UHGV virus genome: UHGV-0099331
Strand: one strand, 5' to 3'
Source of the DNA: a virus
DNA length: 18,860 nt
Of this stretch, positions 16,659 to 17,799 are shown piece by piece. The first letter of the stretch is position 1. Every line of letters begins with the position of its first letter. A program made the translations under genes and the position numbers. Below the pieces are notes generated by a model that worked only from the letters and a program-made list of their open reading frames with translations, was not told the origin of the DNA and did not search any database.

Positions 16659-17042
16659 TTAGGACGCTTTAGACTTGGTCATATTAGCGCAACGCTGGAT
16701 TAATTTCTCTGCAGTCTTAATCGCGGTGCTTGATTGGGTTGGCGTAATAGTGTCGTTAAGTCTGTAATCACAAACTATTCTCTGATCCTTAAGCGATTGA
16801 AGAGCATACCCCAAACCAATTAAGTCTCTTTTTTCAAAAGGTTCGTTACCCTTCCAAGCATCGTTAACAAGATAGTCAATGAGGCCTTGGTGACTTTCTT
16901 TCGGCCCCATGGTCAAACACGGAAGTACGTGGTGATAAGCACCATAATACGCACGTGCGACAGCGTTTCTGTAACCAATTTCGTCGTTACGCTTTTCACA
17001 ATCTTTTGCGAAAGCGATAAAATCGGAACTATTAACTGGCAC
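16659..17042 (-). CDS. Hypothetical protein (about 127 aa) with HEPN-like R-x6-H motif; second gene of a coupled pair
   Basis: GTG at 17042 preceded by GGAGG at 9 nt and overlapping the upstream stop (GTGCCAGTTAA). Motif RAYYGAYHH fits the HEPN R-x(4-6)-H pattern. AT-rich. The track ORF extends to a TTG at 17093. Confidence 0.5.
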   Translation of the reverse strand: MPVNSSDFIAFAKDCEKRNDEIGYRNAVARAYYGAYHHVLPCLTMGPKESHQGLIDYLVNDAWKGNEPFEKRDLIGLGYALQSLKDQRIVCDYRLNDTITPTQSSTAIKTAEKLIQRCANMTKSKAS

Positions 17043-17799
17043 GCGCAGGTTCCTCCAAACGCCCTTCAAACCATACGCTGAAGGGTTTTCCAATCAAACT
17101 TTCATTTTCTGCAAGAGAAAATGCTATATCCAAGTTCATATCAGAGAGAACATCAGAATCTTCAGTATTAACTGCCATGACATATGATGACGTACGCTCT
17201 TCAGGGATAGAGCAGAAAGACATAGCAACAGGACTAACTTTATGGTCAGCCATGATATCCACTATGCGGTTTGCAATATCCTGTAGTTCTTCATCAGTAA
17301 TTCCAGTTGCACTTTTGAAGGTCGTGGATTGGGCCAGTGCTGTGGCTGCGAGGTGCTTAACCAATTCAGCCTCCTTTTCATCTACCATACTTATCAATCT
17401 CTCAGCATAGTAGAGCGCTTTGTCAATACGCCCCAAGAACAAGTTAGCTTCCCATGCATGGGACAGCATCGTAGGGGAGTTATAACGTTCAACTAATCGA
17501 TTTACCACTTGTTCAACTTCACGGAAGCTGCCGTAATCGTTGAGATAAACTACATAATTTTGAGCAATGATCAGGTTGTTATGCTTCAATGCTTCTTCAA
17601 AGAATGCAACTGCAGTATCTTTACGCCCAAAAGCACCATTAGCCAACGCTTTGAGATAGTCCTCAGATGCGCTGTCGCGCAACTTTTCTATATCTCTGAT
17701 ATAACGAAAATATTGCATTTCGGATATCGTATTCCGAGCCGCAAGAATATCGATTAATTCACTGCTGATTTCGTTCGCTTTTAGCGCCGGCTGTGGCAT
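17032..17799 (-). CDS. Hypothetical protein (255 aa), helical/TPR-like N-terminal region; first gene of a coupled pair
   Basis: ATG at 17799 with AAGGTGA Shine-Dalgarno. AT-rich. No recognisable catalytic motif. Confidence 0.6.
   Translation of the reverse strand: MPQPALKANEISSELIDILAARNTISEMQYFRYIRDIEKLRDSASEDYLKALANGAFGRKDTAVAFFEEALKHNNLIIAQNYVVYLNDYGSFREVEQVVNRLVERYNSPTMLSHAWEANLFLGRIDKALYYAERLISMVDEKEAELVKHLAATALAQSTTFKSATGITDEELQDIANRIVDIMADHKVSPVAMSFCSIPEERTSSYVMAVNTEDSDVLSDMNLDIAFSLAENESLIGKPFSVWFEGRLEEPARAS

Follow-up and report, generated by a model that had tools for sequence, protein, structure and literature searches.

HEPN RNases are recurrent effectors in bacterial immunity. 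To our knowledge, no activity has been demonstrated for the AF0298/UPF0332 branch of the fold, from which the canonical histidine is absent. The catalytic Rx4-6H motif of HEPN domains is located at the end of helix 3; AF0298-like members keep the arginine of this motif, have an aspartate in place of its histidine and carry a second conserved histidine in the insert between helices 2 and 3 (PMC3710099). This combination of arginine and insert histidine has been proposed as an alternative RNase site, and HEPNs of the AF0298 type may also act non-catalytically (Anantharaman et al., 2013, PMC3710099). The HEPN of type IX retrons, which is likewise AF0298-like in lacking the motif histidine and having the alternative one, has been predicted to act as the RNase of a defence system, with the same kind of alternative site proposed for it (Mestre et al., 2020, PMC7736814). 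AbiV of Lactococcus, which has AF0298 among its closest structural neighbours, is a proven metal-independent RNase in abortive infection (bioRxiv 10.1101/2024.05.05.592566). HepS of Gifsy-1 (PMC13043305) and Tha of S. aureus prophages (PMC11087260) are HEPN proteins that belong to the accessory cargo of prophages; they are present constitutively and become active in response to a structural protein of an incoming phage, making them precedents for prophage-encoded HEPN abortive infection.

The window analysed here, the whole 18,860-nucleotide stretch of virus genome UHGV-0099331, contains, at the end of an E. coli prophage, a pair of minus-strand genes, A and B, in which a predicted HEPN of the AF0298 type is combined with an unassigned TPR-like protein and not with a nucleotidyltransferase. 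The pair is best regarded as a self-contained 'moron', an accessory cassette carried by temperate phages and small plasmids, most likely a toxin-antitoxin (TA)-like abortive-infection module, although the likelihood of this reading falls a little short of even.

Layout of the gene pair and its surroundings

Gene A (17032-17799, minus strand) encodes 255 residues and gene B (16659-17042, minus strand) encodes 127, and the PGAP/RefSeq annotation matches both open reading frames exactly (WP_001136067 and WP_001145023, respectively). The GTG start codon of B (17042-17040) lies inside A, 8 nucleotides ahead of the A stop codon (TAA, 17034-17032), so that the genes overlap by 11 nucleotides with the stop codon counted (17032-17042). 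A Shine-Dalgarno sequence for B, GGAGG (17052-17056, minus strand), can be read from the sequence in the 3' end of A, 9 nucleotides 5' of the GTG. The start position of B is common to 17 other loci, where it is mostly ATG with an SD-like purine run on its 5' side; this conservation and the PGAP annotation rule out a longer, 144-residue frame starting at TTG. In every locus examined the order is A then B, with the genes overlapping or no more than 14 nucleotides apart. A and B form one translationally coupled unit, and the observation made in a preliminary description of this locus is confirmed by the sequence, the annotation and the conserved start.

The unit is bounded at its 3' end by a hairpin with a 12-bp stem between an A-run and a T-run (U-run in the RNA; 16626-16653). 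Its folding energy is -17.5 kcal/mol (z = -5.2) and none of 200 shuffled sequences was equally stable, although a simple terminator scan does not pick it up. Because it occupies the gap between the B stop codon and the point where a converging integrase remnant ends, this intrinsic terminator is bidirectional, as originally proposed. The remnant (16224-16624, plus strand) comprises the C-terminal ∼135 residues of a frameshifted tyrosine integrase, shows ∼40% identity to the int of the window and to an Enterobacter prophage int (blastx) and is annotated by PGAP as a pseudogene ('recombinase').

On the other side, the pair is the final cargo before attR (18238-18283, plus strand), which consists of the last 46 nucleotides of tRNA-Pro (proL) and is an exact match to proL positions 32-77 of strain J2. 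The native tRNA terminator follows 3' of attR and is itself followed, in the annotated context, by a yejO pseudogene. This proL 3' fragment is the only tRNA trace in the window, in which ARAGORN found no complete tRNA and Rfam no other RNA family. The pair had been placed between int and att; its position as last cargo before attR is correct, but the integrase remnant and a DUF2971 gene, both overlooked, separate it from the intact int. No further att copy, as would be left by tandem elements, was found on searching between int and the cassette.

The non-coding region upstream of A (17800-18237, minus strand; 38.5% GC) travels with the cassette, contains conserved blocks in the alignment and presumably holds the cassette promoter; promoter-like matches in a motif scan are weak. 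About 200 nucleotides upstream of A, a repeat search identified a perfect 11-nucleotide inverted repeat, TCTGTGGATAA-N7-TTATCCACAGA (17995-18023). Both arms match the DnaA-box 9-mer perfectly, and the window has no other perfect TTATCCACA sites. The palindrome, a candidate operator, is kept in Enterobacter, Pseudocitrobacter, Yersinia and Hafnia, with its arms changing symmetrically.

The arrangement is similar to that of type II TA loci, with two adjacent genes, tight coupling, an internal Shine-Dalgarno sequence and the presumed neutralizer upstream. Together with the resemblance of the conserved palindrome to a TA operator, this layout could indicate a pure addiction module, in which toxin B and antitoxin A stabilize the carrier prophage end or plasmid and have no anti-phage role. 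Such a function is judged unlikely. A search of A and B for a DNA-binding domain (HTH, RHH or AbrB-type) detected none that would serve autoregulation, and simple neutralization would not call for the sensor-like TPR-like array of A. A also differs from classical type II antitoxins in being twice the size of B and in having no DNA-binding domain, which counts against the preferred TA-like reading.

Protein B and the AF0298-like HEPN branch

The AF2 model of B (pLDDT 92.3) is a four-helix up-down bundle (helices 5-17, 21-42, 71-93 and 101-122) in which helices 2 and 3 are separated by an insert that forms two further helices (51-60 and 62-66). A Foldseek search with this model gives AF0298 (2hsb) as the best match (TM 0.71, probability 1.0), followed by sacsin-HEPN, Csm6, AbiV and HepT. 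Searching the PDB with a B profile identifies the 'HEPN domain-containing protein' 9xbd (E 4e-5) as well as 9xbc and AF0298, and the profile also matches phrog_5176 (E 5.8e-30). B itself scores 12.8 bits (E 0.13) with the Pfam model PF05168, below the gathering threshold of 22; of its homologs, P0048 has a precomputed PF05168 match and some are named UPF0332 by JGI. Both the structural and the profile comparisons thus support the HEPN assignment made earlier from the sequence.

The motif on which that assignment had been based does not have the significance given to it. The segment RAYYGAYHH is present, and its Arg30 and His37 are invariant in the family; however, this R-x6-H lies in helix 2 (residues 21-42), where it aligns with the 'RAYYAMFY' and 'TAYYAMFH' segments of UPF0332 proteins, and is not the catalytic HEPN motif. 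At the catalytic position, the end of helix 3, B has R88-I-V-C-D92-Y93 with no histidine within 4-6 residues, so that the canonical Rx4-6H is absent.

Nine residues of B are strictly identical in all of 16 gamma-, beta- and alpha-proteobacterial loci: Arg25, Arg30, Tyr32, Tyr33, His37, His51, Arg88, Asp92 and Tyr93. Among these, Arg88, Asp92 and His51 are invariant in 34 close and 16 distant sequences and align with the RNRSDY and SSHS segments of 9xbd and with their AF0298 equivalents. B has Arg88, Asp92 in place of the histidine and His51 in the insert, the combination that defines AF0298-like HEPN-T sequences. Helix 2 of B shares YYA.(F/Y)H with 2hsb, 9xbd and 9xbc, the insert shares (S/T)H and the terminus of helix 3 shares R-x3-DY; as in B, the canonical histidine is missing from this group and the alternative one is present (PMC3710099). 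Taken together, sequence and model indicate that B is a HEPN-fold protein of the AF0298/UPF0332 (HEPN-T) type. The carriers differ, with members of the described group found on archaeal and thermophile chromosomes and the A-B pair on proteobacterial temperate phages and plasmids.

Whether B is catalytic is uncertain given the absence of the canonical histidine, and binding has been suggested as the mode of action of HEPNs without that histidine (PMC3710099). B could accordingly bind RNA or nucleotides as a HEPN devoid of nuclease activity, with A as its adaptor, the two forming a regulatory pair that serves the phage by modulating host or phage expression, lysogeny or induction, or by countering host defence, for example through sequestration of a signal or host factor. 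The DnaA-box-like arms of the palindrome hint at a link to host physiology that would suit such a role. The nine invariant polar and aromatic residues, with Arg, His, Asp and Tyr at the expected active-site positions, look enzymatic, and the nearest defence-associated relative of B, the type IX retron HEPN, is a predicted effector. AbiV, the RNase that neighbours AF0298 structurally, argues in the same direction (bioRxiv 10.1101/2024.05.05.592566). A non-catalytic regulatory function is therefore considered improbable, about to the same degree as pure addiction.

AbiV is among the Foldseek matches of B with low TM values (0.35-0.41), is larger (201 residues against 127) and has as its reported neutralizer an upstream RNA, abiV2, and not a protein. 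HepS has a canonical RX4-6H (Arg100-His105), unlike the non-canonical site of B, and no sequence relationship of A-B to HepS or Tha was detected. The HEPN gene of type IX retrons precedes and overlaps a wHTH gene, whereas B comes second, after the gene of the TPR-like protein. The window contains no reverse transcriptase, msr/msd RNA or wHTH partner (ORF map; nothing in Rfam), and a retron is rejected.

Protein A and the nature of the HEPN partner

A begins with a TPR-like array (residues ∼4-136), from which a long helix (141-165) leads to a C-terminal domain of alpha-beta-beta-alpha-beta topology (169-246). The upstream protein had been described as helical or TPR-like with no enzyme motif; the array and the lack of conserved catalytic residues stand, while the C-terminal alpha/beta domain had been missed. 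TPR is a protein-binding fold. No residue is invariant in the A family, and what conservation there is concerns mostly hydrophobic positions. The family has no G[GS], DxD or invariant acidic residue anywhere, and comparison of A with Pfam, NCBIfam and PDB sequences gives no nucleotidyltransferase match.

These observations bear on a further possibility, namely that the pair is a degenerate or variant MNT-HEPN system, with a cryptic nucleotidyltransferase in the C-terminus of A that AMPylates Tyr93 of B, as MntA does HepT. The usual partner of HEPN-T proteins is a minimal nucleotidyltransferase (PMC3710099), an invariant tyrosine adjoins the R-x3-D motif of B, and 9xbc and 9xbd differ in having Phe or Tyr at the position equivalent to Tyr93 (Tyr in 9xbd). 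The C-terminal domain of A is, moreover, a small alpha/beta unit. However, its strands 190-198 and 203-210 form a tight hairpin and not the beta-turn-helix-beta arrangement of nucleotidyltransferases. In place of an adjacent G[GS]/DxD nucleotidyltransferase, B is accompanied by a 255-residue TPR-like and alpha/beta protein without a catalytic motif, and the cassette has no other open reading frame. The missing catalytic motifs largely refute an MNT variant, which is left as very improbable.

Purifying selection appears to act on both proteins, as judged from the substitution rates: dS is saturated in most comparisons, with dN at 0.15-0.65; the comparisons that allowed dN/dS to be computed gave 0.12-0.25, the remaining values being bounds. 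The non-synonymous rate of A is 1.6-1.9 times that of B. Hydrophobic conservation, a binding fold and faster change are compatible with a sensor or antitoxin beside a more constrained effector.

Distribution and possible role

The A-B unit is kept in gamma-, beta- and alpha-proteobacteria. Of 19 genomic loci, 15 have a gene of the A family preceding B, and the same arrangement is seen in three sequenced phages and one 10-kb MOBQ plasmid. A third protein search, with a family profile, contributed one further homolog, and a BFVD fold search returned two full-length viral homologs, both uncharacterized, and nothing else. Three independent cargo positions are occupied. In E. coli and Enterobacter the cassette lies between int and attR; in Yersinia, Hafnia and Serratia it follows the antiterminator Q and precedes lysis; and a P2-like Vibrio phage has it flanked by the ogr/portal genes on one side and replication gene A on the other. 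These positions support the earlier view of the pair as prophage cargo. A and B thus travel together among three classical prophage sites and a plasmid.

At the Q-lysis loci the cassette has the orientation of the late operon, which implies expression on induction too and is in keeping with a regulatory function of the pair in the service of the phage. The 10-kb plasmid, which is mobilizable, is a replicon on which TA modules are typical cargo, and in strain J2 the pair still adjoins attR after an IS1-associated loss of the remaining prophage; both speak for addiction, and the retention in J2 also counts in favour of an abortive-infection module. Against this stands the repeated siting in phage defence/moron hotspots beside defence-type genes, which include a DUF2971/PDC-S31 gene and ApeA-HEPN; the DUF2971 gene appears as a predicted defence gene in the part of the DefensePredictor lists consulted. 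Since many TA modules also defend, addiction overlaps with the preferred reading of an abortive-infection module. If the pair were an ordinary addiction module, two 'hypothetical proteins' and two PHROGs of unknown function would still have gained a family name.

Neither protein could be assigned to a described system, in agreement with the preliminary description. A and B match no family in PADLOC-DB v2.0.0, nor do distant A homologs, and Pfam and NCBIfam make no such assignment. Two phage-borne B homologs match PADLOC HEPN_IX weakly (E 4e-5 and 1e-4), which the E. coli B does not. A and B do not occur in the searched parts of the DefensePredictor supplementary lists. Literature searches for either WP accession, UPF0332 with HEPN, COG1895, the two PHROG identifiers and PDB entry 9xbd yielded no paper, and the pair is not described in the P2/P4 hotspot paper. 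The earlier interpretation is thus upheld as regards the coupled unit, the HEPN fold, the prophage cargo and the lack of a described system, and set aside as regards the motif argument.

For an abortive-infection module the same working model is proposed as for HepS and Tha. [quoted passage not shown] A, made in a fixed ratio to B through translational coupling, would keep B inactive, probably by means of its C-terminal alpha/beta domain, and its TPR-like array could be a protein-binding sensor that frees or activates B on the arrival of a phage protein or on loss of A. HepS and Tha are single self-sensing proteins, whereas in A-B the separate TPR-like protein presumably does the sensing. The interaction of A with B, the RNase activity or toxicity of B, the trigger and the defence phenotype are all elements that we infer. 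In one Pseudocitrobacter assembly A is broken into two open reading frames while B is intact, which argues against a strongly lethal toxin that depends fully on A, provided that the C-terminal half of A is not sufficient by itself and that the break is not a sequencing error.

It is possible, if rather doubtful, that A-B is a previously unrecognized two-component immune system in which the TPR and alpha/beta protein directly senses a phage protein and unleashes an RNA-cutting AF0298-type HEPN with an arginine and insert-histidine site. This would provide a first function and trigger logic for a HEPN-T outside MNT pairs, and would account for the E. coli CRISPR spacers directed against carriers of the cassette. 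The compact 1.6-kb cassette is easy to clone and bears on whether the alternative HEPN site is real, on how a separate TPR-like sensor could gate a HEPN effector and on what proL prophages contribute to E. coli.

The cassette is present in ∼1% of complete E. coli genomes and is targeted by three E. coli type I-E spacers, each identical over 32 of 32 nucleotides and with a correct PAM. One protospacer lies in B (16773-16804, minus strand; PAM ATG; strain 1943 and others) and two lie in A (17189-17220, minus strand; PAM ATG; E. coli W, LY180 and others; and 17324-17355, minus strand; PAM AAG; E. coli NY1601). The pair had also been called much more AT-rich than the prophage backbone, which overstates the difference: its GC content is 42.8%, compared with 48.6% for positions 1-13896 of the window, while the adjacent intact int has 42.4% and the DUF2971 gene nearby 33.2%.

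Gene pair and chromosomal setting

The window is E. coli chromosome: strain CT265 is 100% identical to it and 53 of 5426 complete genomes contain the stretch. A lambdoid prophage is integrated at the tRNA-Pro gene proL, and the window covers its right end. The attR site, the last 46 nt of proL, lies at 18238–18283 (+) and is followed by the native tRNA terminator and, directly outside attR, by a truncated yejO (pertactin-like autotransporter) pseudogene (18385–18860, −); yejO is intact in some strains, e.g. AR216.2b. ARAGORN and Rfam searches found no complete RNA gene in the window. 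On the prophage side of attR, an AT-rich non-coding stretch of 438 nt leads to gene A (17032–17799, −; PGAP WP_001136067, 255 residues) and gene B (16659–17042, −; PGAP WP_001145023, 127 residues). The preliminary description of these as two coupled minus-strand genes is confirmed: both ORFs are real, with identical ends in PGAP, and the GTG start of B (17042–17040) lies inside A, overlapping its end by 11 nt, with GGAGG (17056–17052) 9 nt before the GTG. The start position of B is identical in 17 other loci, mostly as ATG and with a Shine–Dalgarno-like run upstream, which supports the 127-residue reading and rules out a 144-residue ORF with a TTG start. The bidirectional terminator proposed to bound the pair was likewise recovered, as a 12 bp hairpin (16626–16653) between A- and U-runs (ΔG −17.5 kcal/mol, z −5.2) that stands between B and a converging integrase remnant. 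The pair had also been described as much more AT-rich than the prophage backbone; its GC content (42.8%) is indeed below that of the rest of the prophage (48.6%), but equals that of the intact int gene (42.4%; 13897–15081, +).

The frameshifted remnant (∼16224–16624, +) encodes the C-terminal third (∼135 residues) of a different tyrosine integrase, with only ∼40% identity to the intact integrase 1.2 kb upstream. This divergence suggests one of two histories: the A–B cassette originally arrived with an older element at proL, or recombination replaced the int region.

An 11 nt perfect inverted repeat (TCTGTGGATAA-N7-TTATCCACAGA, 17995–18023) lies upstream of A at a distance of ∼200 nt; apart from its two arms, the window has no perfect DnaA-box 9-mer. 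Enterobacter, Pseudocitrobacter, Yersinia and Hafnia carry the repeat at an unchanged distance, independently of prophage position and with changes in one arm mirrored in the other. The repeat is a candidate operator. No recognizable DNA-binding domain is found in A or B.

Folds and conserved residues of the two proteins

The AF2 model of B (pLDDT 92.3) is all-helical, with helices at residues 5–17, 21–42, 71–93 and 101–122 and a two-helix insert at 51–66. The family profile matches two PDB entries named ‘HEPN domain-containing protein’, 9xbd and 9xbc (E 4e-5), and also AF0298 (2hsb, ‘UPF0332’; E 0.035). A Foldseek search with the model ranks 2hsb first (TM 0.71), with further HEPN structures after it: 2q00, 1ufb, sacsin, Csm6, AbiV and HepT. 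The confident helical model, the profile matches and this ranking together identify B as a HEPN protein, in agreement with the fold proposed earlier.

The motif on which that proposal was based, RAYYGAYHH (R30-x6-H37), is nevertheless not the HEPN RNase signature. It lies in helix 2 and aligns with the corresponding helix-2 motif, RAYYAMFY/TAYYAMFH, of the relatives just named, in which the His position of B is Tyr in 9xbd and its Arg position is Thr in AF0298. In HEPN RNases the catalytic Rx4–6H is found where helix 3 ends (Anantharaman et al., 2013, PMC3710099), and there B has R88-IVC-D92-Y93 and no His. Members of the AF0298-type HEPN-T clade retain the Arg, often have Asp in place of the His and carry a second conserved His in the insert between helices 2 and 3 that has been proposed to rebuild the active site (PMC3710099). 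B is in exactly this state, with H51 as the insert His. Residues R25, R30, Y32, Y33, H37, H51, R88, D92 and Y93 are invariant in an alignment of 16 gamma-, beta- and alphaproteobacterial homologues.

Protein A combines a TPR-like array, to which Pfam TPR models score under threshold, with a C-terminal domain for which neither Pfam nor the PDB offers a sequence relative. When 1.84 billion cluster representatives were scanned exhaustively with HMMER, only 169 matched, ∼110 of them as full-length proteins (∼255 residues) of the same architecture. The family has no invariant residue and its conserved positions are mainly hydrophobic, so that A looks like a binding protein rather than an enzyme. 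Compared with other genera, dS is saturated for both genes while dN is 0.15–0.65, which shows purifying selection on A and B alike.

Distribution and mobility

Relatives of B were found at 19 genomic loci, 15 of which have an A-family protein immediately upstream, including loci in Aeromonas, Gilliamella, Comamonadaceae, Variovorax, Methylophilaceae, Thiotrichaceae and Azospirillum (hhalign probability 92.7%, E 4e-7; family HMM E 6e-24 to 1.5e-6); the spacing of the two genes ranges from an overlap to a gap of no more than 14 nt. The pair is carried by three sequenced phages, Klebsiella phages ST405-OXA48phi1.3 and Chronis (gp57/gp58) and a P2-like Vibrio phage, and by p5AsACE, a 10 kb MOBQ plasmid of Acinetobacter schindleri. 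In Enterobacter prophages it is flanked directly by the chromosome on one side and by an int 78% identical to that of the window on the other. It is located between antiterminator Q and methylase, holin or lysis genes in Yersinia, Hafnia and Serratia prophages, and between ogr-like/portal genes and replication gene A in the Vibrio phage. The use of three different accessory-gene positions shows that the cassette moves by itself. E. coli J2 has lost the prophage, beside an IS1 copy, yet still has A–B intact and adjoining yejO.

In the J2 locus (NZ_CP195980, 4120–7200) the whole prophage is gone and the order is tRNA-Pro, a dinI-like pseudogene, IS1, B, A and yejO, the last interrupted by IS2. 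In the Pseudocitrobacter faecalis locus (GCA_042681805, 5001–6139) two ORFs of 143 and 111 residues replace A beside an intact B, owing to a frameshift mutation or to an error in the assembly; a genuine split would mean that B is tolerated when A is not full-length. Another strain of this species has an intact A. The most distant B relatives, from an Acidobacteria MAG (locus positions 7495–8393; B with an in-frame stop) and Roseateles (7442–8444), follow shorter ORFs of 164 and 172 residues, which do not match the A-family HMM, although by eye their C-terminal sequences resemble the C-terminal domain of A; these pairs may be a minimal version lacking the TPR array. A Serratia fonticola prophage remnant carries an ApeA-type HEPN defence gene (892–2589; weak matches to PF18862/PF18739) ∼3.6 kb upstream of A–B.

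Three bona fide type I-E spacers from separate E. coli arrays match the minus strand of the cassette at 32 of 32 positions, with functional PAMs: at 16773–16804 in B (strain 1943 and relatives, ATG) and at 17189–17220 (E. coli W and relatives, ATG) and 17324–17355 (NY1601, AAG) in A. Outside the cassette, the other 17.7 kb of the window has no match to any of the 38 further spacers in these three arrays. Matching spacers are present in ∼20 complete genomes, E. coli W included; no genome holds both cassette and spacer, an absence that carries no statistical weight with ∼54 cassette and ∼20 spacer genomes.

Proposed function

The most economical reading of A–B is a toxin–antitoxin-like abortive-infection module, in which B, as the effector, would target RNA through an alternative Arg/His site. 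A would be translated together with B, bind it and neutralize it, and the TPR array of A would sense a phage protein. This reading is supported by the contrasting residue conservation of A and B, by the 1.6–1.9-fold faster protein evolution of A, by the invariable gene order and coupling, by the hotspot and plasmid locations and by precedents. HepS (PMC13043305) and Tha (PMC11087260) are HEPN proteins encoded by prophages and activated by tail proteins, AbiV is an RNase with AF0298 among its closest structural neighbours (bioRxiv 10.1101/2024.05.05.592566), and type IX retrons have as effector a HEPN protein of the AF0298 type (Mestre et al., 2020, PMC7736814) whose model is weakly matched by phage-borne B homologues. 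Rivals to the abortive-infection reading are a pure addiction module and a non-catalytic regulatory or counter-defence pair. A cryptic MNT–HEPN system, with a minimal nucleotidyltransferase as partner of the HEPN toxin, is largely excluded because there is no nucleotidyltransferase motif whatever.

The cassette is neither an MNT–HEPN system nor a retron, and it corresponds to no PADLOC v2 system, as the preliminary failure to assign either protein had anticipated. Both are hypothetical in RefSeq, both families are of unknown function in PHROGs and a literature search found no paper on either protein, so that A–B is best placed as a variant among HEPN-based two-gene conflict modules: a compact, well defined and testable candidate that is not surprising in kind.

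A second cargo gene (15219–16181, −) is wedged between the intact int and the integrase remnant. It is very AT-rich (33% GC) and encodes a DUF2971 protein (WP_000183538) with a zinc-ribbon-like CxxC pair at the C-terminal end. The protein matches PDC-S31, a candidate system in PADLOC (E 4e-22), and phrog_1762; DefensePredictor includes it among its predicted novel defence genes, with remote similarity to AbiGi.
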